A stretch of 64,000 bases of DNA from Thermoanaerobaculales bacterium (GTDB taxonomy: Bacteria; Acidobacteriota; Thermoanaerobaculia; Thermoanaerobaculales; Sulfomarinibacteraceae), in contig DAOPQC010000002.1 of assembly GCA_035358815.1 (NCBI GenBank), positions 472,207 through 536,206 of the forward strand, read 5' to 3'. This document shows positions 10,579 through 54,015 of this stretch, one piece after another (position 1 is the stretch's first letter; every line of letters starts with the position of its first letter). The position numbers and the translations under genes are program-made. The notes beneath the pieces are model-generated. The model searched no databases. It had not been told where the DNA came from and saw nothing but the letters and a program-made list of their open reading frames with translations.

Positions 10579-10607
10579 ATCATACACGGGGTGAGATTTC
10601 ATGTCAA
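10579..10607 (-). promoter_or_regulatory. sigma70-type promoter for rpmG
   Basis: Minus strand reads TTGACA (10607-10602), a 17-nt spacer, then TATGAT (10584-10579). It lies about 30 nt upstream of the rpmG ATG. Confidence 0.7.
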
Positions 10608-10764
10608 TGTCGGGCGCCCGAACAGGCGTGAGGGGTTGGGGAATAGGGGTTCGCTCCCGACTCCGCCTCCGTGCCCCACCCGCTTCCGCTTCCGATGTGA
10701 TGGCTTTCAACGCAGCGGCGTTACCCTGGGTTCGAAGGTGGGGGTGGTGTGCACGATCCCACTC

Positions 10765-10788
10765 GGGAACGGGAACGGGAACGGGAAC
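10765..10788 (+). repeat. (GGGAAC)4 G-tract microsatellite
   Basis: Perfect hexamer repeat about 105 nt upstream of the YdjC-family gene start. Further G-tract (10632-10649) and CTTCCG (10681-10693) fragments occur in the same gap. Confidence 0.9.
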
Positions 10789-10894
10789 GACGGAACGCCC
10801 GAGGCGTCCGCCCTCCGGAACTCGGGGATTGACGAAAAGGAAATTAAGATACGCAGGTAGGACGGATCGTGCCAGGTCCGCGGCGGAGGTGGAG

Positions 10895-11830
10895 ATGTCA
10901 CGAGATTCCCGAACCCGTGTCGCGTTCGCGGTCGCGTCGTTGATTCTCCTCGTCGTGGTCTCGGCGCCGCAGGCCGCCGAGACGGCCGAGCCGACGCAGC
11001 TGATGATCCGCTGCGACGACGTCGGGATGTGCCACGGCGTCAACACGGCTGTGCGCGAGCTGCTCGCCACCGGCCTGCCGTTCTCGGCCTCGGTGATGTT
11101 CGCCTGCCCGTGGCACCTCGAGGCGGTCGAGATCCTCAGGGACCACCCCGAGGTCGGCGTCGGCGTTCACCTCACGCTCAACTCCGAGTGGGAGCACTAC
11201 AAGTGGGGGCCGGTGGTTGGCGCGGCCAAGGTGCCGTCACTGGTCGACGCGAACGGACACTTCCATCCCACCGAGACCGCGTTCGCCGCTGCCGGGCCCA
11301 ATCTCGACGAGGTGCGAGTAGAGCTCGAGGCCCAGATCCAGCGGGCGCTCGCCACCGGGCTGCGCATCGACTACATCGACTTCCACATGCTGACCGCGGT
11401 CTCGACGCCCGATCTGCAGGCGATCGTGGAGCAGCTCGCGGCCAAGCACGGGCTCGGGATCTCGCGCTACTTCGGCGAGCGGTCGGTGTCGCTGTGGGAT
11501 GTCGCGCCCGGGCGCAAGCTGCCGCGGCTGCTCGAGTCGGTGCGGCAGGCGCGTCCCGGCCTCAACCTGGTCGTGCTCCACGTCGGAACCGACACTCCCG
11601 AAATGGCGGCCCTCATCGACTCCAACTACGCAGCCGACCCCTACCGGGTGGCCATCCACCGGCAGGCCGAGCTCGAAGCCGTCACCTCGCCCGCCTTCTG
11701 GGCGGCGCTCCAGACTTCCGGGATCGAGCTCCTCAACTACCGCGACCTCGTGCAACGCCGCGGCCTCGCCGCGATGAAGGCCCCCGAGGTCATCGGCTCC
11801 TACTCGACGTCCTTCACCGAGACGCCATAG
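10895..11830 (+). CDS. YdjC/ChbG-family carbohydrate deacetylase with an N-terminal signal peptide
   Basis: The start is reset to ATG 10895 after GGAGGTGGAG. It begins [29 protein letters not shown] and then [14 protein letters not shown], the YdjC DD-x-G motif. Confidence 0.8.
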
Positions 11831-11883
11831 TCGACGAGAAGCTCATCCGCACCCGGTTTTTTGAGGTTCGGTGCGCGACGACA

Positions 11884-12008
11884 GTTTTCTTTCAGTTTCT
11901 TCATTCTGACGCGCGCAGCGCGTCACTCTCGGCGCGCGCGGGGCGTAGGCCGACGGGGACGGTCAAACATCACTCACTCCGAGCGGCCTACGACCCGCGT
12001 GCGCCGAG
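11884..12008 (-). repeat. 3'-end element family, copy B (hairpin TGACGCGC-GCA-GCGCGTCA)
   Basis: Holds the same conserved block as copies A and C. Its distal 21 nt overlap the last 6 codons plus the stop of the GH105 gene. Confidence 0.7.
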
Positions 12009-13166
12009 CTTGAGCATCTCGCTGCCCGCCATCAGGAAGGCGCCGGTACCGTACTCCATGCTGTCGTCGGCGCTCACCGAGCGGGGGTCGTAGCCGATCT
12101 GCTGCACCCAGCCGAGCTTTCCGGAGGGCTGCAGCGCCCACATCAGGCCCTGCCAGCCGCGGCGCGCCGCGGGCAGAAACATCGAGGCGTCGAGCAGGCC
12201 GCGATTGACGCCCCACGCGAGGCCATAGGTGAAGAAGCCGGAGCCGCTCGACTCGGGGATCGGGTACTCGCCGGGGTCGAGCAGGCTCGAACGCCACAGC
12301 CCATCCTCACCCTGCACCGCGGCCAGCGCCGCCGCCATGTCGCGAAACAGCTGCTCGTAGCGCGGGCGATCCGGGTAGTCGGCCGGCATGTGCTCCAAAA
12401 CCAGGGCGAGGCCCGCGAAGACCCAGCCGTTGCCGCGCGACCAGAAGACCTTGAGGCCGCTCGGGGTGCGCGGGCCGGAGCCGTCGGCCTGGACGACGTA
12501 GCGGCCGTCGCGGTACCAAAGTCGCTCCTCCTGGTCGTAGAGGTAGGAGTAGGTGTCCCACCACATGCCGTTCATCAGGTCGAGGTAGCGGCGGTCGCCG
12601 GTGGCCTCGGCGATGAGCGCCATGGCCGGCGGCGCCATGAACAGGGCGTCGCACCACGACCAGTTGTCGTTCTCCGACCAGCCGACGACGGGCCCGGGCC
12701 GGGGCTCGGCGATCATCGCCTCGAGGCGAGCCACGGTGGGCGCGATCATCGCCGGATCGCGCTCAACGAGGAAGAGCTGGGCATAGGTCTGGGCGATGCA
12801 GAGGTCGTCGGCGTGACGGGGCCGCGGCCCGGGCTGCCAGCCGTTGCGCTCTGAGATGTCCATCGCCGCCGCCAGGTAGCGCGAGTCGCCGGTCGCGTTG
12901 GCGGCCGCCATCACGCCGGCGAAGAAGGCGCCGCGCACCCACTCGGTGTCGCTCACCGGCTGGGTGCCGCCGTCGGGCAGCGGCGCCTCGTACACGATGT
13001 GGTCGATCTGCCAGTCGAAGGCCCTCGCCATGGCCTCGGCGACGGCGTCGGGAGAGAAGACGTCCGGCTGCTGCGGCGGCTCGGCGGCGCGCTTCGCGCA
13101 GCCCGCGATCAGCGCCGCCACGGTCGCGGTCACGGCGAAGAGATGGCACGCTCGTCGGACGATCAT
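11988..13166 (-). CDS. GH105/GH88-type unsaturated glucuronyl/rhamnogalacturonyl hydrolase, lipoprotein
   Basis: 392 aa. Lipobox LIAGC. Alpha/alpha-toroid family motifs: WSWCDALFMAPPA, FWSRGNGW, GSGFFTYGLAWG. Confidence 0.8.
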   Translation of the reverse strand: MIVRRACHLFAVTATVAALIAGCAKRAAEPPQQPDVFSPDAVAEAMARAFDWQIDHIVYEAPLPDGGTQPVSDTEWVRGAFFAGVMAAANATGDSRYLAAAMDISERNGWQPGPRPRHADDLCIAQTYAQLFLVERDPAMIAPTVARLEAMIAEPRPGPVVGWSENDNWSWCDALFMAPPAMALIAEATGDRRYLDLMNGMWWDTYSYLYDQEERLWYRDGRYVVQADGSGPRTPSGLKVFWSRGNGWVFAGLALVLEHMPADYPDRPRYEQLFRDMAAALAAVQGEDGLWRSSLLDPGEYPIPESSGSGFFTYGLAWGVNRGLLDASMFLPAARRGWQGLMWALQPSGKLGWVQQIGYDPRSVSADDSMEYGTGAFLMAGSEMLKLGARGS

Positions 13167-13207
13167 CAGCGACCTCCGGTTTCATCGACCACGGTAGCAG
13201 CTCGACG

Positions 13208-15754
<2,547 letters not shown>

Positions 15755-15923: not shown

Positions 15924-15962
15924 TTGACAAATACTACGAAGCGATATATATCTATTCGTACT
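15924..15962 (+). promoter_or_regulatory. promoter plus palindromic operator upstream of the PadR gene
   Basis: TTGACA lies at 15924-15929 and an AT-rich -10 candidate (TATATATC) at 15945-15952. Inverted repeat TACTACGAA-N15-TTCGTACTA (8 of 9 complementary, 15932-15962) is centred on the palindrome GATATATATC. The ATG at 15963 implies a very short or absent leader. Confidence 0.6.
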
Positions 15963-16535
15963 ATGAACGACGAACTCACCCTCACCCCGCTCCGCCTCGC
16001 CATCCTCGGGCTGGTCGCGATGACCCCGCAGTCCGGCTACGACCTGAAGAAGGTCTTCGACGCGACTCCGATGGGCCACTTCAGCAGCAGCCCCGGCGCC
16101 ATCTACCCGGCGCTCAAGGGCCTCGAGAAGCTCGGCTGGATCCGCGGCCGCCAGGAGAAACCGCGCTCGCGCCGGCCCCGCTTCGTGTACACGATCACTG
16201 AGCGTGGCGACGCGGTGCTCCGCGCCGAGCTCTCCAAGCCGGTCACCCGCGAGGCGCTGATCTGGCACTTCGACCTGGTGATGCTCCGGTTCGCCTTCAT
16301 GGATCGTCTCGGCCGCCCGGCAGCGCTCCAGCTCCTCGCGCAGCTCCGGGCCGAGTCCGAGTCCTACGCCAGGCACCTCGAGCGGCTCCGGCAGGAGCTG
16401 CAGGGGCAGATGTCGCCGTGCGGCCGGCTGGCCCTGGAGCACGGCATTCAGGGTTTCCGGGGCGACGCGCGCTGGGCCGCGCGAGCCATCAACGAGCTCA
16501 CTGAGCCAGTCGACGAAAGGAAGGTGTCCAGATGA
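15963..16535 (+). CDS. PadR-family transcriptional regulator
   Basis: The start is reset to MNDELTLTPLRLAILGLVAMTPQSGYDLKKVF, followed by SPGAIYPALKGLEKLGWI. This is a winged-helix PadR signature with a C-terminal dimerisation helix region. Confidence 0.85.
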   Translation: MNDELTLTPLRLAILGLVAMTPQSGYDLKKVFDATPMGHFSSSPGAIYPALKGLEKLGWIRGRQEKPRSRRPRFVYTITERGDAVLRAELSKPVTREALIWHFDLVMLRFAFMDRLGRPAALQLLAQLRAESESYARHLERLRQELQGQMSPCGRLALEHGIQGFRGDARWAARAINELTEPVDERKVSR

Positions 16536-17419
16536 GCACTGAGAAGTCCACGAGCATCGGGACCTGGATCTGGAAGGTCCTGGCGATCGCCGCGGCGTAC
16601 TTCGTGGGGACGATGATCAGCGGCATGGTGATCACCGCGGCCGGCATGTCATGGCCGGCCTTCCCGAACCCACCCAGCCAGACCACCAACCTCGTCCTGG
16701 GCGCGCTCAGCGCGGTACTGGTGGCCGGCTGCCTCGCACTCCTCGCCTGGGGAGTGCGCGGATCGCAGCCCGTGCGCTGGCTCGTCCTCGCCGCATTCAC
16801 CTACGTCATCTTCGGCCTCAACAACCAGATCGAGGCCGCGGCCTTCACCGCCTTCGGCGGCACCGCCACGATGATCGTGTTCTTCGTCGCGCCGTGCCTG
16901 CTCGGCGCCGCCGCGGCGGCTTGGCTGGTCGGTCCCGGGACGGGGCTGCAGCCTCGGGGCGCCACGGTCTTCGGCCGGCCGGCGTCCGCCTGGTGGTGGC
17001 GAGTCATGGTCGCGTGGCTCGCGTTCCCGGTGATCTACGTGTTCTTCGGGATGCTGGTCTCCCCGATCGTGGTCCCGTTCTACAAGGACCCGAGCTTCGG
17101 GCTGACGCTTCCCGGCTGGAACACCATCTTCCCGGTGGTCCTGTTGCGCAGCGCGCTCGCCCTCGCCGTGACCCTGCCGGTCCTCGTCCTCTGGTCACGC
17201 TCGCGGCGCGCCCTCTTCGTGTCGCTGGCGGTTGCGTTCTTCGCCATGATGGGCCTGATCGGTCTTGCCGCGACGACCTTCTTCCCGCCGACGCTGCGCA
17301 TCGCGCACTCGATCGAGATCCTCGGCGACGCAGTCGTCTACGCGTGGGTGCTGGTCGCCCTTTTCATCCCGAAGGCGCGAACGGGGAGCACCGACCGGCT
17401 GCCTGTCGCCGCCGAGTGA
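16532..17419 (+). CDS. polytopic integral membrane protein of unknown function
   Basis: 295 aa. By eye it has about 8 hydrophobic spans. An ATGA overlap couples it to the PadR gene. Confidence 0.7.
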   Translation: MSTEKSTSIGTWIWKVLAIAAAYFVGTMISGMVITAAGMSWPAFPNPPSQTTNLVLGALSAVLVAGCLALLAWGVRGSQPVRWLVLAAFTYVIFGLNNQIEAAAFTAFGGTATMIVFFVAPCLLGAAAAAWLVGPGTGLQPRGATVFGRPASAWWWRVMVAWLAFPVIYVFFGMLVSPIVVPFYKDPSFGLTLPGWNTIFPVVLLRSALALAVTLPVLVLWSRSRRALFVSLAVAFFAMMGLIGLAATTFFPPTLRIAHSIEILGDAVVYAWVLVALFIPKARTGSTDRLPVAAE

Positions 17420-17465
17420 GCTCGACCCGCTCGGCCCGCTGCGGATCGCGGGTTACGGGGGGCGG

Positions 17466-18323
17466 TCACGCTCCCCGGCTCAACCGCGCGATCCGGTCCG
17501 TGACGTCGTTCCGCATCCGGTCGACGAGCGCGGTCGTGTAGGCGGCCACGTCGAGCGAGGGGTCGGCGACCAGCGGCGTCAGGTCGACCGCAAAGGCGAG
17601 CATGGTGTTGCGGTCGACCTCGTGCGACTCGAAGAAGGTGGCGTTGGCCAGGCGCCGCCCCTGAACCGCGAGGTCGTAGCGCTTGCCGCCCGAGATCTGC
17701 GAGTCGAAGATCCCGGACAGGGCCGCGGCCAGGTTCGGGCGGTCGTCGACCGGCAGCACCTGCTTGTCCGCGTCGGGCAGCCAGTCGAGGCTGCGCCAGA
17801 CCTCGCAGCCGTAGACGCGCAGGGGGCGGACCGCCGGCTCGAGGAGACGCAGCGCGGCGATCGCACGCAGGCAGCTCGCGACGTGGGTGTCGTGCTTGTC
17901 GGCCGGGTTGTGGAGGTAGACGACCTGCGGTTTCGCGCGCGCGAGGATCTCGAGGAGGTCGCCGACCGGGCCCGGGTTCGACGCGTCCTTGAGCTCGGCG
18001 CTCGAGTACATGAGCTGGAGCTGGCAGCCGTAGCCGCCGATCAGGGCGGCGTGGCGCTGCTCGCTCACCCGGATCCGCACCATCTCGTCGTTGGAGCAGC
18101 CGGCGTAGGGGCCGGTGCGGGCGCTGCCGGCGCCGTTGGTCATGGTGACGCCGACGAAGCAGCGGTCGCTGCGGCCGAAGCACTCGAGAATGCCGTGCAG
18201 GGCCATGAACTCGATGTCGTCCTGGTGCGCCCCGACTGCGAGGTGGGTGGTGCGGGCGAGCGCCTCCTCGAGGGGGCCGCCGCCGGGCACGTAGACGTCG
18301 GCTTTTGGCTTTGTCAGCTTCAT
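17466..18323 (-). CDS. PIG-L/LmbE-family N-acetylglucosaminyl deacetylase
   Basis: The start is reset to ATG 18323 (MKLTKPKADVYVP) after GGAGG. HLAVGAHQDDIEF matches the AHPDD(E) zinc motif, followed by HNPADKHDTH. An ATGA overlap links it to the upstream ROK-like gene. Confidence 0.85.
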   Translation of the reverse strand: MKLTKPKADVYVPGGGPLEEALARTTHLAVGAHQDDIEFMALHGILECFGRSDRCFVGVTMTNGAGSARTGPYAGCSNDEMVRIRVSEQRHAALIGGYGCQLQLMYSSAELKDASNPGPVGDLLEILARAKPQVVYLHNPADKHDTHVASCLRAIAALRLLEPAVRPLRVYGCEVWRSLDWLPDADKQVLPVDDRPNLAAALSGIFDSQISGGKRYDLAVQGRRLANATFFESHEVDRNTMLAFAVDLTPLVADPSLDVAAYTTALVDRMRNDVTDRIARLSRGA

Positions 18324-19735
18324 TCCGTGGCCTCCTTCGGCGCGATCCTCGGCAGGCTGGCGGCCGCGATCGCCTGGCCGTGGCGCTTGAACTGCTCGTC
18401 GGGGGTGCTGATCGCGATCGTGCTTGCGAGCTCGGTGAACTCGTCCGCGAGGATCGCCTCGGCCGTCTCGATCATCACTCCTCCGCCCTCGCCCGAGGTG
18501 ACCCGGCCGAGCACCAGCAGGTGCCGGAGGTCGTACCAGCGGGCGTACCAGGCGATCGAGTACCCGAGGTAGGCGCCGATCGTCTCGTAGATCGCTCTTG
18601 CCCGCGGGTCGCCCGCCGCCATCCGGGACTGGACCTCCTTCAGGCGATCGGCGAAGGGCATCTCCTCCGGCAGTTCGATGCCGGCGGTCCGGGCCAGCCG
18701 CGCCACGGCCTGCTGGGAGAAGTACTGGACGCCGCACCCGACGTCGCCCGACCACTCGTCGGCCGGTGCGTCCTCGCGGTAGTCGACCGGCGCGAAGGCG
18801 AGCTCGTTGAGCCGGCTGGTGATGTGCCCGTCGGCGTCGCAGTAGCCGGCGGCCATGCTGGTGCCCATCGAGATGCCGAGCAGGCGGTCCGCGCCGAGGC
18901 TCATCGAGGCCGCGAGCGCCGTCACCTCGCCGTCGTTCACCACCTCGAACGGCACGTCGTTCCATGCGCTCCTCACCCGCTTGAAGAGCGGCCGGATGTG
19001 GGCGTCGAAGTCGGCCTCCGAGATCCCCCGGAACAGCGATGCCACCCGTGGCTCGTTGCCGACGTAGACCCCGGCCGCGCTGCCTCCGATCGCGTCCACC
19101 CGCGGCAGGTGGGCGGCTGCCCGCTCAAGCGAGTCCATGATGCCGGCGAAGTGATAGCCCGGGTCCGACTCGAAGTAGGGGCTCCACTCCACCTCCTCGG
19201 CATGGACCACCCGGCCGTCGATGACCGCCGCGCTCTTGCGGTCGCTGCCGCCGAGGTCGAAGCCGATCCGGCAGCCGTCGAGGTTGCGGCCGAGCGGCAT
19301 GGCGGCCACCCGCGGCGCCGGCGCGTCGTCGATGGCGATGCTGCGGACGGCCATGTCGTCGCCGTAGATCCGGCGGCCGACGACGTCGTAGTCGAACGCC
19401 CGTCTGCCGGAGCGGGCGTAGGCCGCGGCCAGCGACTCGGCGAGCTGCGGGTGGCCGCCGACCAGGATCTCGGAGCCGCCGTTCACCCACAGCAGGGCCT
19501 TGATCAACCGCTCCACGTGCTTGAGGTTGAGTGCGGCGTCCCCGCCCAGGTGCGGCAGGACCGCTGTCTCCTCGCGGAACACCGTGCCGTCGCGCCGCCT
19601 CACGCAGAGCACCACGGGCGCGCTGCGCGGATCGGCCGCGACGCGCTCCGCGAAGGCCCGCTCCCAGAGCACGGCCGGCACGAAGCCGGGGTCCAAGACC
19701 GGCTGGTGCCTGACCTCCACCGTCAGCCCGCTCAT
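18320..19735 (-). CDS. ROK/PPGK-like sugar kinase homolog with an N-terminal extension of about 150 aa of unknown function
   Basis: 471 aa. The kinase-like core runs from RIGFDLGGSDRKSA, with VVNDGEVTALA and GISMGTSMAAGY. There is no CxCGxxGC zinc motif, and I recognise no family for the N-terminal 150 aa. Confidence 0.7.
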   Translation of the reverse strand: MSGLTVEVRHQPVLDPGFVPAVLWERAFAERVAADPRSAPVVLCVRRRDGTVFREETAVLPHLGGDAALNLKHVERLIKALLWVNGGSEILVGGHPQLAESLAAAYARSGRRAFDYDVVGRRIYGDDMAVRSIAIDDAPAPRVAAMPLGRNLDGCRIGFDLGGSDRKSAAVIDGRVVHAEEVEWSPYFESDPGYHFAGIMDSLERAAAHLPRVDAIGGSAAGVYVGNEPRVASLFRGISEADFDAHIRPLFKRVRSAWNDVPFEVVNDGEVTALAASMSLGADRLLGISMGTSMAAGYCDADGHITSRLNELAFAPVDYREDAPADEWSGDVGCGVQYFSQQAVARLARTAGIELPEEMPFADRLKEVQSRMAAGDPRARAIYETIGAYLGYSIAWYARWYDLRHLLVLGRVTSGEGGGVMIETAEAILADEFTELASTIAISTPDEQFKRHGQAIAAASLPRIAPKEATE

Positions 19736-19810
19736 GGCATCAGGCCCTCCCGCTCCGGCATGGCCCTCGCGGCACCGGCCGGATCATATCCCGCGGCGGC
19801 AAGCGAGCCA

Positions 19811-21610
19811 TCAACCGCGGCGGGCGGCGGCGCCTGCCTCGGCGGCGGCCGACGCCCCCCAGATCTTCGGCACCACCACCGCCAGCCCGGTCCCGGCGAT
19901 CGCCGCCGCTCCGAGGCACACCGCCGCCTGCATCCCGTGGCCGTACAGGAGGGCGCCGATCCCGAACAGCGCCGCGTAGACGAAGGTGACGCCGAGCACC
20001 CAGCCGAGCACGGCCAGCGACATGCTGTCGCGCGGACCGACGTCGGGGGCGTCGCCGACGACCTTCCTCCAGCCGGGGCCGGCGGGCCGCACCACCGCGT
20101 AGAAGCGGCGCAGGGTCGCCAAGTCGGCCGGCGGCGTCAGGAAGGTGACCACCACCCAGACGACGGTGGTCAGCGCCACCGACATCACGAGGGCGACGTG
20201 GTCCGACAGCTCGAGGCCGTTCTTCCGCGCCACGAACAGGCCCACCGCGATGGTGAACGACGAGGCCATGGCCGCGATCTCTGACCAGGCGTTGATCCGC
20301 CACCAGAACCAGCGCAGGAGGTACAGCAGGCCGGTCCCGGCGCCGATCGACAGCAGCAGCTGGAAGGCCTCGCCGGCGGTGGTCAGCAGGAACATCCCGG
20401 CGCCCGAGACCGTCATCAGCACCGCCGTCATGACTCGCGACAGCCAGACCATGCGCTTCTCCGTCGCGTCGGGGTTGAGGAATCGCTGGTAGAAGTCGTG
20501 CACGAGGTAGGAGCAGCCCCAGTTGAGGTGGGTCGACATGGTCGACACGTAGGCCGACAGCAGCGCCGCCACCAGCAGCCCGATCAGGCCCGCCGGCAGG
20601 AGGGTCAGCATGGCCGGGTAGGCCAGGTCGTTGCCGATCAGGCTGTCGGAGACGTGGGGCAGCGCGGTCTTGATGTCGGCGAGGGTCGGGAACACCAGCA
20701 TCGAGCTCAGGGCGACGATGATCCAGGGCCACGGCCGCAGCGCGTAGTGGGCGATGTTGAACCACAGCGTGGCGGCCATGGCGTGCCGCTCGTCCTTGGC
20801 GGCGAGCATCCGCTGCGCGATGTAGCTGCCGCCGCCCGGCTCCGCACCCGGGTACCACACCGACCACCACTGGATGGTCAGCGGCACGACCAGCACCGAC
20901 AGGGTGAGGCCCCAGTCCGAGAAGTCGGGCAGCAGGTGCAGCGTCTTGGGATCGATCTGCGCCATCAGGCCGGCCAGGCCCCCGACCTGGGGCTGCGACA
21001 GCGCGACGTAGGCGGCCGCGATGACGCCGGCCATCGCGATGACGAACTGGACCAAGTCCGAGGCCAGCACGCCCCACAGCCCCGAGATCGCCGCGAACCC
21101 GACGCAGATCACGCCGCAGACGAGCACCGTCTGCAGCCGGTCCCAGCCGAGCATGACGTTGGCGATCTTGGCCGCCGCCAGGGTGACCGAGGCCATGATC
21201 GCGCAGTTGAAGAAGAACCCGAGGTAGACCGCGCGGAAGCCGCGGACGAAGGCCGCCGACCGCCCCGAGTAGCGCAGCTCGTAGAACTCGAGGTCGGTGA
21301 GCACCCCGGATCGGCGCCACATCTTGGCGTAGAAGAACACCGTCAGCATGCCGGTGAGCAGGAAGGCCCACCACGCCCAGTTCTGCGACACCCCGTGGGT
21401 GCGCACGAAGTCGGTGACGAGGTTGGGCGTGTCGGTGGAGAAGGTGGTGGCGACCATCGAGGTGCCAATCAGCCACCACGGCGCCGACCGTCCCGAGGCG
21501 AAGAACTCGGAGATGCCGCTCGACGCGCGCCGGGCGTAGTAGATCGCCGGAGCGGCGGAGAGGAGGAGGGAAAGCACGATCACGACCCAGTCGATGGCAA
21601 CGAGCTGCAT
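19811..21610 (-). CDS. sodium:solute symporter family (SSF) transporter
   Basis: The start is reset to ATG 21610 (MQLVAIDWVVIVLSLLL) after GGAGG. It contains FFASGRSAPWW and many TM spans. The ORF-track N-terminal 48 aa are a run-on. Confidence 0.85.
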   Translation of the reverse strand: MQLVAIDWVVIVLSLLLSAAPAIYYARRASSGISEFFASGRSAPWWLIGTSMVATTFSTDTPNLVTDFVRTHGVSQNWAWWAFLLTGMLTVFFYAKMWRRSGVLTDLEFYELRYSGRSAAFVRGFRAVYLGFFFNCAIMASVTLAAAKIANVMLGWDRLQTVLVCGVICVGFAAISGLWGVLASDLVQFVIAMAGVIAAAYVALSQPQVGGLAGLMAQIDPKTLHLLPDFSDWGLTLSVLVVPLTIQWWSVWYPGAEPGGGSYIAQRMLAAKDERHAMAATLWFNIAHYALRPWPWIIVALSSMLVFPTLADIKTALPHVSDSLIGNDLAYPAMLTLLPAGLIGLLVAALLSAYVSTMSTHLNWGCSYLVHDFYQRFLNPDATEKRMVWLSRVMTAVLMTVSGAGMFLLTTAGEAFQLLLSIGAGTGLLYLLRWFWWRINAWSEIAAMASSFTIAVGLFVARKNGLELSDHVALVMSVALTTVVWVVVTFLTPPADLATLRRFYAVVRPAGPGWRKVVGDAPDVGPRDSMSLAVLGWVLGVTFVYAALFGIGALLYGHGMQAAVCLGAAAIAGTGLAVVVPKIWGASAAAEAGAAARRG

Positions 21611-21771
21611 GGTGGACCTACCTCCGTTCCAGGCTTCGGGAAGACCGGGCGCCACGCGGCATCCGGGCCCTGCTCCGGGCTGTCGTGCGAGCCATGATAC
21701 CGGAGCGCGGCCGCCGCGCACTGGCGCGCCGCCCGCGGCTGGGAGAGAATGCACCGCACGCGAGGTGAACC

Positions 21772-23901
21772 ATGAGGAACCCGATGATCGCCACGTTGAT
21801 CACCCTGGCCGCAACCGCCGCGGCCGGAGCCGCGGTCGCGGCAAGCTCGCCGGCGACCCTTGATCTGATGCCGATGCCCCGGCTCGTCGAGCTCGGCTCG
21901 GGTGATCTCACGATCACTGCGGGCTTCACCGTCTCCATCGACGGCGGCGGCGCCACGCCGCGGCTCGCCGACGGTGTGCAGCGGATGCTGCGGCGGCTGT
22001 CCGACCGTTCGGGCCTGTTCTTCCCGCCTTCGACCTTCCTCGAGCTCACGGGGCGACCCGCCGCGGCGCTGACGATCAGTGCGGGCCGCGCCGGCGCGCT
22101 GGTCCTGGGCGAGGACGAGAGCTACACGCTCCGGGTTGCCGGCGACGGCATGCTCCTGACGGCGGCCACCGACATCGGCGCGCTGCGCGGGCTCGAGACC
22201 GTGCTCCAGCTCGTCACCCTCGACGAGCGGGGAGTGACGGTCCCGATGGTCCGGATCGAGGACGCGCCCCGCTTCCCGTGGCGCGGGCTGATGATCGACG
22301 CAAGCCGCCACTTCATGCCGGTCGAGGTCGTCAAGCGCAACCTCGACGCCATGGCCGCGGTCAAGCTCAACGTGCTGCACTGGCACCTCGTCGACGACCA
22401 GGGCTTCCGCGTCGAGTGCCTGGCCTTCCCGCGCCTCCACGAAGCGGCGTCGGACGGCAGCTACTACACCCGCGCCCAGATCCGCGAGGTCCAGATTTTT
22501 GCCGCGGCGCGCGGGATCCGGGTCGTTCCCGAGTTCGACCTGCCCGGCCACGCCACCGCCTGGGCGACCGCCTACCCCGAGCTCGCGAGCCTGCCCGGAC
22601 CCTACCGGATCGAGCGCAGCTGGGGCATCTTCGACCCCACGTTGAACCCGATCCAGGAGGAGACCTACCGCTTCCTCGACGCCTTCTTCGGCGAGATGGC
22701 CGCGCTGTTCGACGATGAGTTCATGCACATCGGCGGCGACGAGAACAACGGCATCCAATGGGCGGCCAACCCGGAGATCGCGGCCCACATGGCGCGCGAG
22801 GGCTACGCCGACACCCTGGCGATGCAGCGCTACTTCAACGAGCGCATGCTCGAGATCTTCACCCGCCACGGCAAGCGCATGATCGGCTGGGACGAGATCT
22901 TCCAGGAGGGCCTGCCGAAGGACATCGTGATCCACTCCTGGCGCGGCCGCGAGGCGCTCGCCGAGGCGGCGAGCCGGGGCTACGCCGGAATTCTCTCCAA
23001 CGGCTACTACATCGACCTCATGCAGCCGACCGACTTCCACTACCTCAACGACCCGCTGCCGGCCGACTCGCCGCTGCCTGAGGAGGCGCGCCGGCTGGTC
23101 CTGGGCGGCGAGGCCACGATGTGGGCCGAGTTCGTCACCCCGGAGACCGTGGACTCCCGGATCTGGCCGCGCACCGCGGCCATCGCCGAGCGGCTGTGGT
23201 CCCCGGGGAGCGTGACCGACGTTGCCGACATGTACCGCCGGCTCGACCGGATCAGCCGGCTGCTCGAGGAGCACGGCCTGCTGCACCTGAAGAACCGGCC
23301 GATGATGCTGCGCCGGCTGTGCCAGTGCCGGGACCTCGCCGGCCTTGAGACCCTGCTCGGCGTGGTCGAGCCGGTCAAGGTCTACCGCCGCAACGCGCTG
23401 CGCAAGGACTCGCCCCACCCCTACACCCAGCTGTCGCCGCTGACCCGGCTGGTCGACATCGCCGGAGCGGACGCGGCCGATGCCCGCGCCTTCCGGTGGA
23501 CCGTGGAGCGGATGGCGGCCGACGGCTTCGCCACTCCGGCCGACATTGACGCAGCGCGGCAGTTGCTGCTGCGCTGGCGGGGAAACCACGCGACCGTCGT
23601 GGAAACGCTGCGGGCGTCACCAGGCTTGGCCGAGATGGAGCCGCTGTCGGCGACGCTGGCCGAGACGGCCGCGATCGGGCTCGAGGCCCTCGAGCTCGCC
23701 TCCTCACGGCTCGCGGCGCCGGCAGGCTGGCTCGAGCCGCGCCTGGCGCGCCTCGAGGCCGCCCGGGCGCCGGTCGGCGAGGCCGAACTGATGGTCGTCG
23801 ATCCCTTGGTGCTGCTTGCCTGCCTCGCGGCCGGGCCGGAGGGCGCGGCGGCGGACGGCTGCCGGCTCCGCGCCGGGACCGGCGCGGCGGGCGACCACTG
23901 A
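21772..23901 (+). CDS. GH20 beta-N-acetylhexosaminidase with a long helical C-terminal extension
   Basis: 709 aa with a signal peptide. Motifs: RFPWRGLMIDASRHF, LHWHLVDDQGFR, HIGGDE (catalytic D-E pair), GGEATMWAE. Confidence 0.9.
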   Translation: MRNPMIATLITLAATAAAGAAVAASSPATLDLMPMPRLVELGSGDLTITAGFTVSIDGGGATPRLADGVQRMLRRLSDRSGLFFPPSTFLELTGRPAAALTISAGRAGALVLGEDESYTLRVAGDGMLLTAATDIGALRGLETVLQLVTLDERGVTVPMVRIEDAPRFPWRGLMIDASRHFMPVEVVKRNLDAMAAVKLNVLHWHLVDDQGFRVECLAFPRLHEAASDGSYYTRAQIREVQIFAAARGIRVVPEFDLPGHATAWATAYPELASLPGPYRIERSWGIFDPTLNPIQEETYRFLDAFFGEMAALFDDEFMHIGGDENNGIQWAANPEIAAHMAREGYADTLAMQRYFNERMLEIFTRHGKRMIGWDEIFQEGLPKDIVIHSWRGREALAEAASRGYAGILSNGYYIDLMQPTDFHYLNDPLPADSPLPEEARRLVLGGEATMWAEFVTPETVDSRIWPRTAAIAERLWSPGSVTDVADMYRRLDRISRLLEEHGLLHLKNRPMMLRRLCQCRDLAGLETLLGVVEPVKVYRRNALRKDSPHPYTQLSPLTRLVDIAGADAADARAFRWTVERMAADGFATPADIDAARQLLLRWRGNHATVVETLRASPGLAEMEPLSATLAETAAIGLEALELASSRLAAPAGWLEPRLARLEAARAPVGEAELMVVDPLVLLACLAAGPEGAAADGCRLRAGTGAAGDH

Positions 23902-24039: not shown

Positions 24040-25872
24040 ATGGCACAGATCGGACTGACGGGCCTCGACCTCGCCATCATCGCCGTGTACCTGGTGGCGG
24101 TGACCGTCATCGGCCTCGCCGTGCGCCGGCGGGCGGCGAGAAGCGTCGAGTCCTACCTGCTCGGTGACAAGAGCCTGCCCTGGTACATGCTCGGCCTGTC
24201 CAACGCTTCCGGGATGTTCGACATCTCGGGCACGATGTGGCTGGTCACCATCGGCTTCGTCTACGGCCTGAAGAGCATCTGGCTGCCCTGGCTGTGGCCG
24301 ACCTTCAACCAGATCTTCCTGATGGTCTACCTGTCGGCCTGGCTGCGCCGGTCGAACGTGACCACCGGCGCCCAGTGGATCGAGACCCGGTTCGGCACCG
24401 GCATCGGCGCCCGCCTGTCGCACATGGTGGTGGTGATCTTCGCGCTCATCGGCGGCCTCGGCTTCCTCGCCTACGGCTTCGTCGGCCTGGGCAAGTTCGT
24501 CGAGATCTTCATCCCGTGGGAGGTGGTCCAGCCCTGGATCGGGATCACGGTCTCGCCCGAGCACGTGCCCCACCTGTACGGCATCGTCTTCACCCTGGTC
24601 GCGGTGGCCTACACCGTCCTCGGCGGCATGCGGTCGATCGTGCTCGCCGACGTCCTCCAGTACACCATCATGACCGTCTCGGCGGTGGTGGTGGCGGTGA
24701 TCGCCATGACCGCCCTCGCCGCCAACCCGCTGGTGGTGCCCGACGGCTGGATGAGCCCGTGGTTCGGTTGGAACCTCGACCTCGACTGGAGCGGGATCAT
24801 CGCCGAGGTCAACCAGAAGATCGCCTCCGACCAGTTCTCGCTGTTCACCATCTTCTTCATGATGATGGTCTTCAAGGGAATCCTGGTCAGCGCGGCCGGG
24901 CCGGCGCCCAACTACGACATGCAGAAAATCCTGGCCACCCGGTCGCCGCGCGAGGCCGCGAAGATGAGCGGCTTCGTCAGCCTGGTCCTGAGCCCGTCGC
25001 GCTACCTGATGATCGCCGGCTTCATGGTGCTCGGGCTGCTGTTCTACGACCGGCTCGACCTGGTCGTGGGCGGCCAGATCGACTTCGAGCAGATCCTGCC
25101 GTCGGCGATCAACGAGTTCGTGCCCGCCGGCCTGACCGGGCTGCTGCTCGCCGGCCTGGCGGCGGCCTTCGTCTCGACCTTCGCCGGGACCCTCAATGCG
25201 GCCCAGGCCTACGTGGTCAACGACCTCTACCACAAGTACATCGACCCCAAGGCCACCCACCGGCGCACGGTGCTGATCAACTACGCGAGCGGGCTGCTGC
25301 TGGTGGTCGTCAGCATGGTGCTCGGCTTCTATGCCGGCAACGTCAACAACATGCTGCAGTGGATCGTGTCGGCGCTGTGGGGCGCCTACCTGTCGTCCAA
25401 CGTGCTCAAGTGGTACTGGTGGCGGTTCAACGGCTTCGGCTACTTCTGGGGCATGGTGGCCGGCATCGTCCCGGCGCTGGTCGCCCCGGCGATCTGGCCG
25501 CAGATGCTGCCGCTGTACTACTTCCCGCACCTGATGGCGATCTCGCTGGTCGGCTGCCTGCTCGGCACCTTCCTGACCGCGCCCACCGACCAGGAGACCC
25601 TGAAGACCTTCTACCGCACGGTGCGGCCGTGGGGCTTCTGGGGACCGATCCGCCGCCTGGTCGAGGCCGAGGACCCGGCCTTCCGGCGCAACCGCAACTT
25701 CAAGCGCGACATGTTCAACATCGTGGTCGGCACCGCGTGGCAGACCGCCCTGGTGGCGCTGCCGATCTACTTCGTGCTGATGCGGTGGCAGGCGGTGGCG
25801 GTGACGGCGGCGATCGTCGCGGCGACGATGGTCATCCTCAAGAAGACCTGGTACGACCGGCTCGAAGACTGA
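24040..25872 (+). CDS. sodium:solute symporter family (SSF) transporter
   Basis: 610 aa and polytopic. It sits immediately upstream of the epimerase/GH130 genes, with a 4-nt gap. Confidence 0.85.
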   Translation: MAQIGLTGLDLAIIAVYLVAVTVIGLAVRRRAARSVESYLLGDKSLPWYMLGLSNASGMFDISGTMWLVTIGFVYGLKSIWLPWLWPTFNQIFLMVYLSAWLRRSNVTTGAQWIETRFGTGIGARLSHMVVVIFALIGGLGFLAYGFVGLGKFVEIFIPWEVVQPWIGITVSPEHVPHLYGIVFTLVAVAYTVLGGMRSIVLADVLQYTIMTVSAVVVAVIAMTALAANPLVVPDGWMSPWFGWNLDLDWSGIIAEVNQKIASDQFSLFTIFFMMMVFKGILVSAAGPAPNYDMQKILATRSPREAAKMSGFVSLVLSPSRYLMIAGFMVLGLLFYDRLDLVVGGQIDFEQILPSAINEFVPAGLTGLLLAGLAAAFVSTFAGTLNAAQAYVVNDLYHKYIDPKATHRRTVLINYASGLLLVVVSMVLGFYAGNVNNMLQWIVSALWGAYLSSNVLKWYWWRFNGFGYFWGMVAGIVPALVAPAIWPQMLPLYYFPHLMAISLVGCLLGTFLTAPTDQETLKTFYRTVRPWGFWGPIRRLVEAEDPAFRRNRNFKRDMFNIVVGTAWQTALVALPIYFVLMRWQAVAVTAAIVAATMVILKKTWYDRLED

Positions 25873-25876
25873 CGCC

Positions 25877-27091
25877 ATGGACCGACCGGCCCTTCGGGGC
25901 GCTATCGCCCGCGAGCTCGAGACCAACCTGCTGCCGTTCTGGCGCGAGCGCAGCCTCGACCACCGCCGCGGCGGTTTCATCGGCGAGATGGCGAACGACG
26001 GCACCGTTCGCGAGGATGCGCAGCGCGGGCTGATCCTCAACGCCCGCCTGCTGTGGACCTTCTCGGCGCTGTACCGCGAGCTCGGCGACGAGCGCGACCT
26101 GGCCCTGGCGCGGCGCGCGCTCGAGGCGCTCGAGACGGCCTTCCACGACCGCGAGCACGGCGGCTACTTCTGGCGGACCGATGCCGAAGGCCGCCCGCTC
26201 GACACCTCCAAGAAGGTCTACGGCCAGGCCTTCTGCATCTACGCGCTCGCCGAGCTCCACCGCGCGACCGGCGATGCGGCGGCCTTCGACGCCGCGACCG
26301 CGCTCCTCGGGCTGGTCGACCGCCACGCCCGCGACCCGCGTTTCGGCGGCTGGATCGAGGCCCGCGCCCGCGCCTGGTCCGAGGCCGACGACCTGCGGCT
26401 GTCGGACAAGGACATGGACGTCGCCAAGTCGATGAACACCCACCTCCACCTGCTGGAGGCGGTCACCAACCTTCACCGCGCGCGGCCGTCCGCAGCGACC
26501 GCCGAGCGGCTCGCCGAGCTGCTGGCCATCTTCGACCGCCACATCCTCGGCCCGGACCCGCTCGACCGGCACCTGCGCCCCTTCTTCGACGAGCGGTGGG
26601 ACGTGTGCTCGGACAGCTACACATTCGGTCACGACATCGAGGCGGCGTGGCTGCTGTCGGAGGCGGCCGAGGTGCTCGGCGACCCGCCGGCGCTCGAGAA
26701 GGCGACCGGCTGGGCCATCGACCTCGCGCGGACGGCGCTCGCCCAGGGCCTGGGCCCGGATGGCGGGCTCGCCTACGAGGGGCGAGCAGGCGAGGTGACC
26801 AACCGCGACCACGACTGGTGGTGCCAGGCCGAGGCGGTCATCGGCTTCTGGCACGCCTTCTCGCTCACCGGCGAGCCGGCCTTCGCCGAGGCCTCGGCTC
26901 GCAGCTGGAGCTTCATCGACCGCTTCCTCGTCGACCGGGTCCACGGCGACTGGCACTGGCGGGTCAAGGCCGACGGCGAGGTCGACCGCGCCGAGCCCAA
27001 GGTGTCGGAGTGGAAGTGTCCCTACCACAGTGTTCGGATGTGCCTCGAGATGATGCGGCGTCTGGCCGACGCCGGTGGGGCGGCGCCATGA
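25877..27091 (+). CDS. AGE-family 2-epimerase (cellobiose/mannobiose 2-epimerase-like)
   Basis: 404 aa. N-acylglucosamine 2-epimerase superfamily pattern: [56 protein letters not shown]. Confidence 0.85.
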
Positions 27092-28278
27092 GGGTCCAGA
27101 GCTTCGGCGAGCGCAGAGGTGAGATCTTCGACGACTACGAGCGGCTGATCGCGCGGACGAACCAGCCGGAGGAGCGCAGCAATGGGGTGGTCCAGCGCTG
27201 GCGCCACCCGGTGCTGACCGCCGATCACACCCCGCCGTTCTGGCGCTACGACCTCGACGAGGCGACCAACCCGCACCTGCTGGAGCGGCTCGCGATCAAC
27301 GCCGTGTTCAATCCCGGCGCGATCTTCCACGACGGCAAGTTCTGCCTGATGGCGCGGGTCGAGGGCGCGGACCGCAAGAGCTTCTTCGCGGTCGCCGAGA
27401 GTGAAAGCGGCGTCGACGGCTTCCGCTTCCGCGACCGGCCGGTCGTGATGCCCTCAACCGCCGACCCCGACGTCAACGTCTACGACATGCGCCTAGTCCG
27501 GCACGAAGATGGATGGATCTACGGCCTGTTCTGCACCGAGCGCAAGGACCCGGCGGCGCCCCGCGGCGACCTCTCGTCGGCGGTGGCCCAGTGCGGGATC
27601 GCGCGCACCCATGACCTTGAGACCTGGGAGCGCCTGCCCGACCTGCGGACGCCCTCGCCCCAGCAGCGCAACGTGGTCCTCCACCCCGAGCTCGTCGACG
27701 GCAGGTACGCCTTCTACACCCGACCGCAGGACGGCTTCATCGAGGCCGGTTCGGGCGGCGGCATCGGCTGGGGCCTGTCGGAGCGGATCGATCCTGCGGT
27801 CATCGACCGGGAGGTCATCGTCCACGACCGCGCCTACCACACCATCGCCGAGGTCAAGAACGGGCTCGGCCCGGCGCCGATCAGGACCAGCCGCGGCTGG
27901 CTGCAGCTCGCCCATGGGGTGCGCAACACTGCGGCCGGGCTGCGCTACGTGCTGTACGCCTTCATGACCGCCATCGACGAGCCATGGCGCGTCATCCACG
28001 CGCCCGGCGGCCACCTGCTCGCGCCCGAGGGCGAGGAGCGCGTCGGCGACGTCTCGAACGTGGTCTTCTCGTGCGGCTGGATCGACCGGCCGGACGGCGC
28101 CCTCTACATCTACTACGCCTCGTCGGACAGCCGCTGCCACGTCGCGACGACCACCGTCGAGCGGCTCGTCGACTACTGCCGACACACCCCACCCGACCCG
28201 CTGCGGTCGGCGGCCTGTGTCACGCAGCGGCTCGAGCTCATCGAGCACAACCTCAAGCTGATGGGAGGTGAGCGATGA
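27088..28278 (+). CDS. GH130 4-O-beta-D-mannosyl-D-glucose phosphorylase-like
   Basis: The start is reset to ATG 27088 (ATGA overlap with the epimerase). As I recall it, the protein is collinear with Bacteroides fragilis MGP: [69 protein letters not shown]. Confidence 0.9.
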
Positions 28279-29501
28279 CGAGGGCATTGGCTGCGCTCGC
28301 GGTGGCCATCCTCGCCGTGGCACCGGCCGCACAAGCGCAGAAGTTCGAGGGCCTGGCCCTGACGCCGCCGATGGGCTGGAACAGCTGGAACCACTTCGCG
28401 TGCGACATCAGCGAGGAGACGGTGCGGCAGACCGCCGACGCCATGGTCGCCTCGGGGATGAGGGACGCCGGCTACCTCTACGTGAACATCGACGACTGCT
28501 GGCACGGCGAGCGCGACGCCGACGGCTTCATCGGGGCCGATCCCGGGCGCTTCCCCTCGGGGATCAAGGCGCTCGCCGACTACGTCCACTCCAAGGGGCT
28601 CAAGCTCGGCCTCTACTCCGACGCCGGCTGGAAGACCTGCGGCGGCCGGCCCGGCAGCCGCGGCCGCGAGTTCCAGGACGCCCTGACCTACGCCCGCTGG
28701 GGGGTCGACTACCTCAAGTACGACTGGTGCTCGACCGAGGGGCTCAGGGCCGAGGGCGCCTACCAGACCATGGCGGCGGCGCTCACGGCGGCCGGCCGGC
28801 CGATCGTGTTCTCGATCTGCGAGTGGGGCGACAACAAGCCGTGGGAGTGGGCCGGCGACGTCGGCCACCTGTGGCGGACCACCGGTGACATCACAGCCTG
28901 CTTCGACTGCGAGGTCGACCACGGCGACTGGTCGTCGTGGGGGGTGCTGCGGATCCTCGACTTGCAGGAGGGCCTGCGGGCCCACGCCGGCCCCGGCCAC
29001 TGGAACGACCCCGACATGATGGAGGTCGGCAACGGGATGAGCGAGAGCGAGGACCGGGCCCACTTCTCGATGTGGGCGATGCTCGCCGCGCCGCTGATCG
29101 CCGGCAACGACCTGCGGACGATGTCCGAGACGACGCGGTCGATCCTCACCAACCGCGAGGTGATCGCCGTCGACCAGGACCCGCTCGGCATCCAGGGTTT
29201 CCGCCACTCCCGCGACGGCGACCTCGAGGTCTGGTACCGGCCGCTCGCTGACGAGGACTGGGCGGTGTGCGTGCTCAACCGCGGGCCCGCACCGCGGCGG
29301 ATCGAGCTCGACTGGCACGACGAAACGGTGTCCGACGAGCTGTCGGGCCGGCAGACGCTCTTCAACGCCAGGCTGTACCGGGTGCGCGACCTGTGGACCG
29401 GCAAGGACCTCGGCACCACCCGCCGGGTCCTCGACGCAGAGATCGGGGGCCACGACGTGCTCATGGTGCGACTCGCCCGGGTGCTGGACGCGGACGACTG
29501 A
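28275..29501 (+). CDS. GH27 alpha-galactosidase, secreted
   Basis: 408 aa with a signal peptide. Motifs: [29 protein letters not shown] (nucleophile Asp region), PDMMEVGN. Confidence 0.9.
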
Positions 29502-29514
29502 TCGGGAGGGCAGC

Positions 29515-37502: not shown

Positions 37503-37590
37503 GGTGCGCTCAGCCCTCCCCCTCCCCGTGCCCGACCCGAGGGCTCCACCGTTGCGTTCGGCCGGACGCGGGGCTCCTCCGCACCCCGTC

Positions 37591-37623
37591 GGGAACGGGA
37601 ACGGGAACGGGAACGGGAACGGG
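37591..37623 (+). repeat. (GGGAAC)5GGG G-tract microsatellite
   Basis: Perfect repeat between the receptor-gene terminator and the sulfatase-TPR gene start. Confidence 0.9.
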
Positions 37624-37627
37624 CATA

Positions 37628-37659: not shown

Positions 37660-37684
37660 AAGGATAGCAGCGATCGGAGAGAGA

Positions 37685-52669: not shown

Positions 52670-52690
52670 GGCCCAACCTCCCTGGTGGCG

Positions 52691-53968: not shown

Positions 53969-54015
53969 GCGCTCACCCCTCGTTCTGCGCCGCCGTGCGG
54001 CGCCTCATCCTCGCG

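Follow-up and report, generated by a model that had tools for sequence, protein, structure and literature searches.

An atypical ROK-fold kinase and a PIG-L-family deacetylase as a candidate N-acetylglucosamine catabolic module in bacteria without NagA

Introduction

Chitin, peptidoglycan and glycoproteins supply N-acetylglucosamine (GlcNAc), which ranks among the major sources of carbon and nitrogen in soil, sludge and guts. In the NagK-NagA-NagB pathways of the Escherichia coli, Shewanella and Xanthomonas types, it is imported through a phosphotransferase system (PTS), NagP or an ABC transporter, phosphorylated at position 6 by NagK, a kinase of the ROK fold, deacetylated by the amidohydrolase NagA, which needs the 6-phosphate, and deaminated by NagB. 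In the chitin pathway of Thermococcales, the LmbE-family deacetylase Dac, the GH35 enzyme GlmA, an ADP-dependent kinase and, as the last enzyme, the SIS-type deaminase GlmD act without NagA, and deacetylation precedes the phosphorylation of glucosamine (GlcN). Here we describe an operon for an SSF-family transporter, a kinase-like protein and a PIG-L/LmbE-family deacetylase, which is divergent from a GH20 beta-N-acetylhexosaminidase gene, in a window of 64,000 nucleotides (the whole stretch of DNA analyzed; positions 472,207 to 536,206 of contig DAOPQC010000002.1, assembly GCA_035358815.1) from a Thermoanaerobaculales bacterium of the phylum Acidobacteriota. We propose that the operon serves the uptake and catabolism of GlcNAc (N-acetylhexosamine) and that its PIG-L protein acts on GlcNAc-6-phosphate (GlcNAc-6-P) in the place of NagA, a reading whose chances we put at about even.

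The pathway logic is known; what is new is an uncharacterized kinase family with an extra domain of unassigned fold and PIG-L subfamilies in NagA's place. The locus resembles the NagK-NagA-NagB pathways in that NagA or NagB occupies the slot next to the kinase gene in some phyla and in that a NagB-II-like gene is found in the window. It differs from them in that a PIG-L/LmbE zinc hydrolase stands where they use an amidohydrolase, in its SSF transporter and in its kinase, which scores below the thresholds of the ROK models, is without the ROK cysteine motif and has an additional domain of 148 residues. With the Thermococcales pathway it shares an LmbE-family deacetylase, the absence of NagA and a candidate SIS-type deaminase for the last step, and the Dac structures are the best Protein Data Bank (PDB) matches of the PIG-L partners, although that likeness extends no further than the N-terminal core (48 bits). 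The present host, however, is bacterial, and the PIG-L gene is coupled to that of a ROK-fold kinase whose orthologues adjoin NagA, which favors action after phosphorylation; there is no GH35 GlmA, and the candidate glucosaminidase is a GH2 protein encoded 35 kb away. The available portion of Ravcheev and Thiele (2017) gives known replacements for NagK and NagB and none for NagA. A literature search that covered few subscription journals and no supplements returned nothing on the deacetylation of GlcNAc-6-P by PIG-L/LmbE proteins or on the kinase family described below.

The kinase-PIG-L pair is conserved across phyla

The neighborhoods of the kinase gene were compared in 80 loci of species-representative genomes. 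In 55 of them the gene immediately after the kinase encodes a PIG-L protein, 50 of these having been called with Pfam among the 74 loci with scanned open reading frames (ORFs) and five with tblastn (L010, L011, L051, L055 and L067). Four loci (L001, L038, L061 and L074) end within 325 nt of the kinase gene and were not judged, which leaves 21 others. The pair was found in Acidobacteriota, Verrucomicrobiota, Planctomycetota, Kiritimatiellota, Lentisphaerota, Actinomycetota, Chloroflexota, Myxococcota and Hydrogenedentota. The partner proteins form two subfamilies with a mutual identity of only ~20%, with 30 sequences (the one from the window included) in one and 20 loci in the other, drawn from the 50 Pfam-called loci and the window; the sequence of L018 is truncated. 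Because two such divergent subfamilies fill it, the slot, and not one gene lineage, is conserved.

The same slot can be filled by genes of the canonical pathway. NagA directly follows the kinase gene in L040, L041 and L047, where its scores on TIGR00221 (283.7, 248.9 and 234.7 bits, respectively) are above the curated cut-off; a truncated NagA, an amidohydrolase fragment, is found there in L024 and NagB in L016. NagB adjoins the pair in L012, L025 and L065, giving operons of the order kinase-PIG-L-NagB-SSF (L025) and NagB-kinase-PIG-L (L065), while L072 has kinase-PIG-L-SIS with a ROK-type repressor. NagB or a SIS deaminase is the commonest functionally informative extra neighbor (L012, L016, L025, L053, L065 and L072). 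The regulators in the wider neighborhoods include ROK-type repressors in L072 and L076 and AraC proteins in four loci, and a NagX-like HGSNAT protein is encoded near the kinase gene in L074.

Several neighbors would also suit the same chemistry on another or a broader sugar, such as N-acetylgalactosamine (GalNAc), N-acetylmannosamine (ManNAc) or a sugar derived from N-acetylmuramic acid (MurNAc), or a salvage of the sugar into cell-wall precursors in place of its use for energy. A NamZ exo-muramidase is encoded upstream in L040 and a GH123 beta-N-acetylgalactosaminidase downstream in L079, NahK-like APH kinases are found two genes downstream of PIG-L in L025 and L065, followed in L065 by a GalE-like epimerase, and GH20 enzymes are known to release both GlcNAc and GalNAc. 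Salvage would fit an operon without a deaminase in a genome that has GlmS. Set against this are the deaminases' standing as the commonest informative neighbor and the alternation with NagA described below, which points to the GlcNAc-6-P node, and we consider a different sugar or salvage improbable.

Three further observations concern these loci. A fusion of NagB with a PIG-L-like domain upstream of the kinase gene in L053 (3963-5972) was examined as a Rosetta-stone link and dropped, given its degenerate SPEPLDD motif and its lack of similarity to the partner subfamilies; judging from that sequence, the PIG-L-like domain is probably non-catalytic. In L020 (7387-8847) and L079 (7416-8780), which belong to NagA-containing genomes of different phyla, the kinase gene is followed by a ceramidase-like gene (PF04734, weak match), and the two products are 26% identical to each other. 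Ceramidases are N-acyl amidases, and these genes could represent a third kind of amidase in the slot downstream of the kinase. Finally, the kinase of L030, from a record titled Bifidobacteriaceae, groups as sister with the L022 kinase (Vicinamibacterales) on very short branches, and the gene downstream is 91% identical, so that the label of L030 looks wrong, as in a mis-binned metagenome-assembled genome.

NagA and the PIG-L partner alternate

The window's own genome, which is 98.87% complete, has no NagA: its best match to TIGR00221 reaches 20 bits and is not at the PIG-L gene, whose product is not a NagA homologue. PF01182, the model of NagB-I, has no match anywhere in this genome either, so that the lack of both genes, which the first-pass annotation had noticed within the window, extends to the whole genome. 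Among the 55 genomes with the PIG-L pair, NagA scores above the cut-off in three (L013, L017 and L018), or 3 of 54 when the unpublished genome G080 is left out. Among the 21 assessable genomes without a downstream PIG-L gene it does so in 16, and L068, in which NagA is found in three adjacent pieces, makes a seventeenth.

A quick IQ-TREE phylogeny of 76 kinases indicates that these states have changed repeatedly, as its supported branches force at least four changes of the state in which NagA is present and PIG-L absent, involving Lentisphaeria, one Akkermansiaceae genome, Bacillota and a subclade of Vicinamibacterales. Across the switch the kinases remain similar, with 78-81% identity in Vicinamibacterales and 76% between L012 and L016. 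In an alignment of 52 PIG-L-linked kinases with 16 from NagA genomes, 124 positions have the same residue in at least 90% of both sets, and no position separates one set from the other.

These results bear on the order of the reactions. The operon could alternatively work deacetylase-first, the PIG-L protein acting on free GlcNAc, chitobiose or both in the cytoplasm, the kinase serving as a GlcN kinase or a broad hexose/hexosamine kinase, and a SIS deaminase finishing the route; we hold this to be a serious rival, though less likely than the kinase-first order. Both orders predict the loss of NagA, so that its absence is expected under deacetylase-first action as well. In the latter, however, the kinase must take GlcN where it stands beside PIG-L and GlcNAc where it stands beside NagA, yet no position discriminates the two sets and the identity across the switch is as high as 78-81%. 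For the same reasons the order of the Thermococcales pathway, to which the first-pass annotation had likened the operon, is not favored. The part of that annotation that fared better is the amino-sugar module itself with PIG-L supplying NagA's step, for which the conserved pairing, the slot shared with NagA and NagB, the anti-correlation with NagA and a genome without NagA and NagB-I all speak.

Amidohydrolases that match TIGR00221 with 95-224 bits are present in many genomes. We treated these matches, which lie below the cut-off, as paralogues because they occur beside a NagA above the cut-off in G016, G018, G024, G033, G038, G045 and G050. One recurrent paralogue (170-224 bits, just under the cut-off, usually over model positions ~50-360) was seen in G016, G018, G024, G029, G043, G046 and others. 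It also occurs in part of the genomes with the PIG-L pair alone, and it could blur the argument from the absence of NagA.

A second sample of 251 Acidobacteriota genomes with at least 90% completeness, which shares part of its genomes with the 80 loci and so is no independent sample, contains NagA above the cut-off in 63 genomes and the kinase in 27. When the window's own genome and the unpublished G128 are excluded, 25 usable kinase-positive genomes remain: 19 have PIG-L downstream, one has NagA without a downstream PIG-L, four have neither and one kinase gene lies at a contig edge. Two copies of the kinase are found in some Acidobacteriota (G213, G279 and G108), and in G213 only one of the copies has a PIG-L gene downstream.

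The kinase has a ROK-type core and a family-specific N-terminal domain

The kinase-like protein has no Pfam match at 1e-3. The Pfam ROK model (PF00480) scores it at 14.6 bits against a gathering cut-off of 22.9 (E 0.025), NCBIfam returns nothing at threshold and no ROK model at E<=1, and the best E value of a phmmer search of the PDB is 0.48; none of these reaches its threshold, so that sequence alone gave no family assignment. In the public annotation, its relatives carry only automatic "ROK family protein" labels. The AlphaFold2 (AF2) model, built with 49 sequences, has a predicted local distance difference test score (pLDDT) of 94.7 and a predicted template-modeling (TM) score (pTM) of 0.91. 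A Foldseek search with the model places residues ~155-465 among the ROK proteins: every top match is a ROK kinase or a ROK repressor (E 1.5e-18 to 1e-11). The kinases among them, at E 1e-18 to 1e-12, include glucokinase (2qm1), the Thermus hexokinase (3vov), ManNAc kinases (NanK, 2yhy and 2aa4) and GlcNAc kinases (NagK, 7p7w and 4db3). The matches share the two-domain ASKHA/ROK fold over ~320 residues, with TM scores (target) of 0.57-0.80 among the matches listed and 0.70-0.80 for the kinases, and with only 12-20% identity among the matches listed. Profile-profile alignment by hhalign with the canonical ROK kinase of the window gives a probability of 92.8 and an E value of 4e-7. The "ROK/PPGK-like" label of the first-pass annotation holds at the level of the fold only; membership of the Pfam ROK family does not follow from the profile scores.

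In the hhalign alignment, DLGGS, NDGE, GTS and NELA of the kinase pair with DLGGT, NDAN, GTG and GEIG, respectively, of the canonical ROK kinase. The motifs DxGGS, NDG(D/E) and GTS and the residue E311 are shared with the ROK kinases of known structure, and D160, N267, D268 and E311, which are invariant or at least 90% conserved in the family, align with ROK motifs. We take these to be the catalytic Asp of N-D-x-N/G, the phosphate-1 motif DxGG(T/S) and the sugar-binding Glu of ExGH. The Glu of ExGH is kept and its His is absent (NELAF). The ROK zinc-binding cysteine motif, CxCGxxGCxE, is missing as well: the sequence after E311 reads ...DEWSGDVGCGVQYFSQ... and has a single Cys. The possibility, raised in the first-pass annotation, that the protein lacks catalytic residues is not borne out, as the catalytic Asp and the phosphate-binding motifs are kept. 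We therefore read the protein as a probably active kinase with a ROK-type core that lies outside ROK as currently modeled. The family is large, with at least 8000 clusters at 90% identity; a search retrieved 1782 representatives (50% clustering) at E<=1e-3, 375 of them below 1e-30.

Nearly all full-length relatives listed have 440-500 residues and align from about residue 10 on, and for this reason the N-terminal domain is assigned to the kinase family itself. The ~150 residues that the first-pass annotation had left unassigned form a real domain that is conserved across the family. Folded alone by AF2 (57 sequences; pLDDT 94.8), residues 1-148 give a small alpha/beta unit in which P20, L82, W83, G86, F114 and D115 are invariant among the 57 sequences and E75, R76 and K79 are conserved besides D115. 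The best VIA-align match among 48,161 PDB chains is a de novo designed protein (Z 5.4), the others having Z scores of at most 4.6, and Foldseek found no PDB match at E<=0.001. An APOBEC-like deaminase fold was considered and not assigned (best Foldseek E 0.08, TM 0.35). The predicted domain appears to have no clear match in the PDB, which does not show its fold to be new, and neither VIA-align nor the Foldseek PDB search matched it to a DNA-binding fold. Since genomes with either kind of deacetylase have it, the domain is no special feature of the partnership with PIG-L.

The PIG-L partners keep the LmbE catalytic residues and additional arginines

The deacetylase belongs to Pfam PIG-L (PF02585; 44.7 bits against a cut-off of 28.2, E 2.4e-11), and residues 32-36 form the AHQDD motif already recognized in the first-pass annotation. 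Like the kinase, it has relatives in at least 8000 sequence clusters. It was compared with the LmbE motif (A/P)H(P/Q)DD ... HxDH and with the sugar-binding Arg and His (R68 and H144 of MshB). H33, D35, D36, R85, H144 and H147 match the metal ligands, the general base and the sugar-binding Arg and His of LmbE enzymes, with R85 aligned to the Arg of the IRRKEE segment of Dac. Residue roles follow the 2014 review of the LmbE superfamily, in its available part (PMC4101496). All six are invariant across 35 partners, except that H144 is Asn in subfamily B. Both linked subfamilies also keep extra arginines, R69 and R223 being invariant and R269 at least 90% conserved; the Dac sequence, where aligned, offers no equivalent of R69, and the extra arginines are either absent from the Dac alignment or outside the core that can be aligned with PDB entries. 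Their conservation would fit an anionic substrate.

By itself, the PIG-L sequence gives two weak matches in the PDB, the better one to TT1542 (E 0.13); Dac, BshB and MshB are not matched at E<=1. With a profile of the 35 partners, the best matches are the archaeal Dac enzymes 8bgn/8bgo (6.7e-12) and PH0499 (1.6e-10), ahead of BshB1 (1.6e-9) and MshB (6e-9). The lead of Dac over BshB and MshB is only 8-10 bits, and the alignment to Dac covers only profile positions 24-161, which belong to the core common to PIG-L proteins; in the other matches, too, only the N-terminal ~140 positions align. MshB and BshB belong to the same fold family and have the same metal-ligand, base, Arg and His residues; in contrast to them, the kinase-linked proteins conserve extra arginines in their C-terminal half and are encoded in a catabolic context, not one of thiol biosynthesis.

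The first-pass annotation had allowed that the deacetylase might group with the thiol-biosynthesis clades, and, with Dac slightly in the lead, such a grouping was not seen. A non-catabolic role, be it thiol or glycoconjugate biosynthesis of the BshB/MshB kind or a kinase-like protein that is a non-catalytic sensor, could draw on the weak match of the PIG-L protein to TIGR04001 (BshB1; 28.9 bits against a cut-off of 182.5) and on several Bacillota loci in which the kinase gene stands amid unrelated genes. It is very improbable, given that no glycosyltransferase or cysteine ligase is encoded near the operon, that the neighbors are transporters, GH20, NagB, NagA and sugar regulators, that the kinase keeps its catalytic Asp and phosphate-binding motifs and that its N-terminal domain matched no DNA-binding fold in the VIA-align and Foldseek searches.

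Proposed pathway and order of reactions

We propose the following route. The exported GH20 enzyme would release free GlcNAc and the SSF symporter would import it. The ROK-fold kinase, to judge from its fold, the conservation of its catalytic motifs and the NagA genes beside it in other phyla, would convert it to GlcNAc-6-P, from which the coupled PIG-L protein would remove the acetyl group, leaving GlcN-6-phosphate (GlcN-6-P); such a substrate would be of a new class for LmbE enzymes. The NagB-II-like SIS deaminase could then yield fructose-6-phosphate, or GlcN-6-P may enter cell-wall synthesis. Phosphorylation before deacetylation is favored because the undifferentiated kinase directly precedes a true NagA, which needs the 6-phosphate, in other phyla, because the genome already encodes a further ROK kinase within another amino-sugar cluster and because the linked PIG-L subfamilies share the extra arginines.

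A number of points weigh against this route. The nearest solved relatives of the PIG-L partners are archaeal diacetylchitobiose deacetylases, which act on unphosphorylated sugars, and their place ahead of BshB1 and MshB in the profile search suits deacetylase-first action, although the match is confined to the common core. According to the available part of the superfamily review, all characterized LmbE enzymes use unphosphorylated GlcNAc moieties, the substrates listed are all built on a GlcNAc core that is substituted at its anomeric carbon, and no known LmbE/PIG-L enzyme uses a sugar phosphate; the word "phosphate" is absent from its main text (PMC4101496). The argument from the arginines is one of sequence conservation. 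A broad ROK kinase could, unchanged, phosphorylate both GlcNAc and GlcN. The contrast in NagA is weaker in the quality-filtered second sample, where NagA scores above the cut-off in 2 of the 19 pair genomes against 63 of 251 overall, and it is gone once sub-cut-off amidohydrolases are counted (7 of 19 against 84 of 251); four genomes there (G106, G122, G218 and G279) have the kinase with neither a downstream PIG-L nor NagA, and related genomes are not independent samples.

The second amino-sugar cluster of the window (49830-59079) touches both orders. It encodes a 750-residue protein without a family, a canonical ROK kinase (51791-52690), an MFS transporter, a GH2 protein with an exo-beta-D-glucosaminidase Ig domain, the NagB-II-like SIS protein and a GH20-like protein; just upstream of it is the gene for a GH94 phosphorylase (46832-49594). 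The GH2 protein and the SIS deaminase would suit a GlcN-based, deacetylase-first route, while the canonical ROK kinase means that this cluster already has a kinase of its own, which tells against it. The SIS proteins of the genome include GlmS and this two-SIS protein, which scores 233.8 bits on NF046059 (NagB-II), below the cut-off of 430, and 225 bits on the C-terminal isomerase half of GlmS. It probably acts like a SIS sugar-phosphate deaminase or isomerase and is a candidate NagB-II. The genome holds one other PIG-L gene, in frame with a GT2 glycosyltransferase and so in a biosynthetic context.

Layout and transcription of the operon

The genes are listed in Table 1. Their positions in the first-pass annotation, including the 75-nt gap between the SSF and kinase genes, agree with the ORF list and the sequence, as does the overlap of the kinase TGA with the PIG-L ATG as ATGA at 18320-18323, which implies translational coupling.

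Table 1. Coordinates of the operon, the divergent GH20 gene and the candidate deaminase gene within the window.
Feature	Coordinates	Strand	Basis and remarks
SSF transporter	19811..21610	-	Pfam SSF; opens the operon; 599 aa with the ATG at 21610 as start
SSF-kinase gap, 75 nt	19736..19810	-	Sequence reading
Atypical ROK-fold sugar kinase, 471 aa	18320..19735	-	AF2 model and Foldseek; predicted GlcNAc or N-acetylhexosamine 6-kinase
Kinase N-terminal domain, residues 1-148	19292..19735	-	Family-specific; conserved family-wide
PIG-L/LmbE-family zinc deacetylase, 285 aa	17466..18323	-	Pfam PIG-L; predicted functional replacement of NagA
Divergent intergenic region between operon and GH20 gene	21611..21771		161 nt from the SSF start to the GH20 gene
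GH20 beta-N-acetylhexosaminidase	21772..23901	+	Pfam GH20; signal-peptide-like N-terminus
NagB-II-like two-SIS-domain protein, 345 aa	56830..57867	+	Two SIS domains; candidate GlcN-6-P deaminase, 35 kb from the operon

The transporter matches Pfam SSF (PF00474) above the gathering threshold (97.6 bits, E 9.5e-28, profile positions 1-396 of 406) and TIGR00813 with 118.8 bits, under that model's cut-off. Its longest ORF would begin at a GTG at 21754; the ATG at 21610 was accepted as the start because GGAGG stands before it. Orthologues with 77-95% identity are encoded upstream of the kinase gene in L001-L004, and one with 52% identity is part of the kinase-PIG-L-NagB-SSF operon of the Kiritimatiellota genome L025. 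The symporter is likely an importer of N-acetylhexosamine. The window has a base composition of ~70% G+C. A scan of 17200-22000 showed no sigma-70 consensus promoter, which is uninformative for this phylum, and a single terminator-like site on the plus strand (17346-17360) that falls inside the 3' end of a convergent ORF, whose stop at 17419 follows 58 nt further on. That ORF, of 295 residues and without a family match, overlaps a PadR regulator gene, and the two (15924-17419, plus strand) converge on the PIG-L gene. Both also lie beside the operon in L002 and L003 (PadR 75% and ORF 76-82% identical), and in L004 only the ORF was seen, at 51% identity.

The window's nearest relatives are Holophagae (Acidobacteriota) genomes, and DNA nearly identical to it is present in metagenomes of activated sludge and wastewater. 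Parts of the region are also matched at full identity by short contigs in four metatranscriptome libraries from two studies. One contig of 271 nt, from the RNA libraries X17/X18, is identical to the window over 19694-19964 and runs from the 3' end of the SSF gene across the gap into the kinase gene. It is compatible with co-transcription of the two genes, without proving a single transcript, and contigs in RNA libraries can stem from contaminating DNA. No contig in these libraries, which yielded short contigs only, covers the junction of the kinase and PIG-L genes.

The GH20 gene and the surrounding glycan genes

The GH20 protein has a Pfam GH20 catalytic domain (316.2 bits, 4.1e-94) and two GH20 N-terminal (GH20b) domains (45 bits). 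Its hydrophobic, Ala-rich N-terminus, as read by eye, suggests secretion, and it probably releases its monosaccharide outside the cytoplasm. The link to the operon drawn in the first-pass annotation is upheld by adjacency in the window and in Holophagae (L001-L003) and does not reach beyond them, the gene adjoining the operon in only 3 of the 80 loci. Further genes follow it on the same strand (24040-31449): those for a second SSF transporter (24040-25872), a cellobiose/mannobiose 2-epimerase (25877-27091; NF041848, 337.9 bits), a GH130 phosphorylase in the frame 26053-28278, a GH27 alpha-galactosidase and a SASA-type esterase. This stretch looks like an epimerase/phosphorylase route for beta-mannan or N-glycan cores, and since it follows on the same strand, the GH20 gene may belong to it as much as to the divergent operon. 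Beyond PadR, the region 10601-15754 encodes a YdjC-like carbohydrate deacetylase with an N-terminal extension of ~130 residues, a GH88 unsaturated glucuronyl hydrolase and a GH3 protein with an Exop_C domain. Further along lie the genes for a sulfatase-TPR fusion (35148-37838) and for an outer-membrane barrel protein of large size (37685-40924), and the window in its entirety is a glycan-degradation supercluster.

Implications

Canonical NagA is present in only 63 of the 251 sampled Acidobacteriota genomes, so that GlcNAc processing in the rest is a gap in annotation. It is quite conceivable, though in our estimate a little short of an even chance, that the two kinase-linked PIG-L subfamilies are the first LmbE enzymes for sugar phosphates, that they have repeatedly displaced NagA and that, together with the new kinase family, they form the main GlcNAc route in Acidobacteriota, Verrucomicrobiota, Planctomycetota, Kiritimatiellota and other bacteria without NagA. 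If so, the kinase-PIG-L pair would fill this gap and correct the metabolic reconstructions of abundant uncultured phyla, and the LmbE enzymes would gain a new class of substrates and the kinases a newly defined family.

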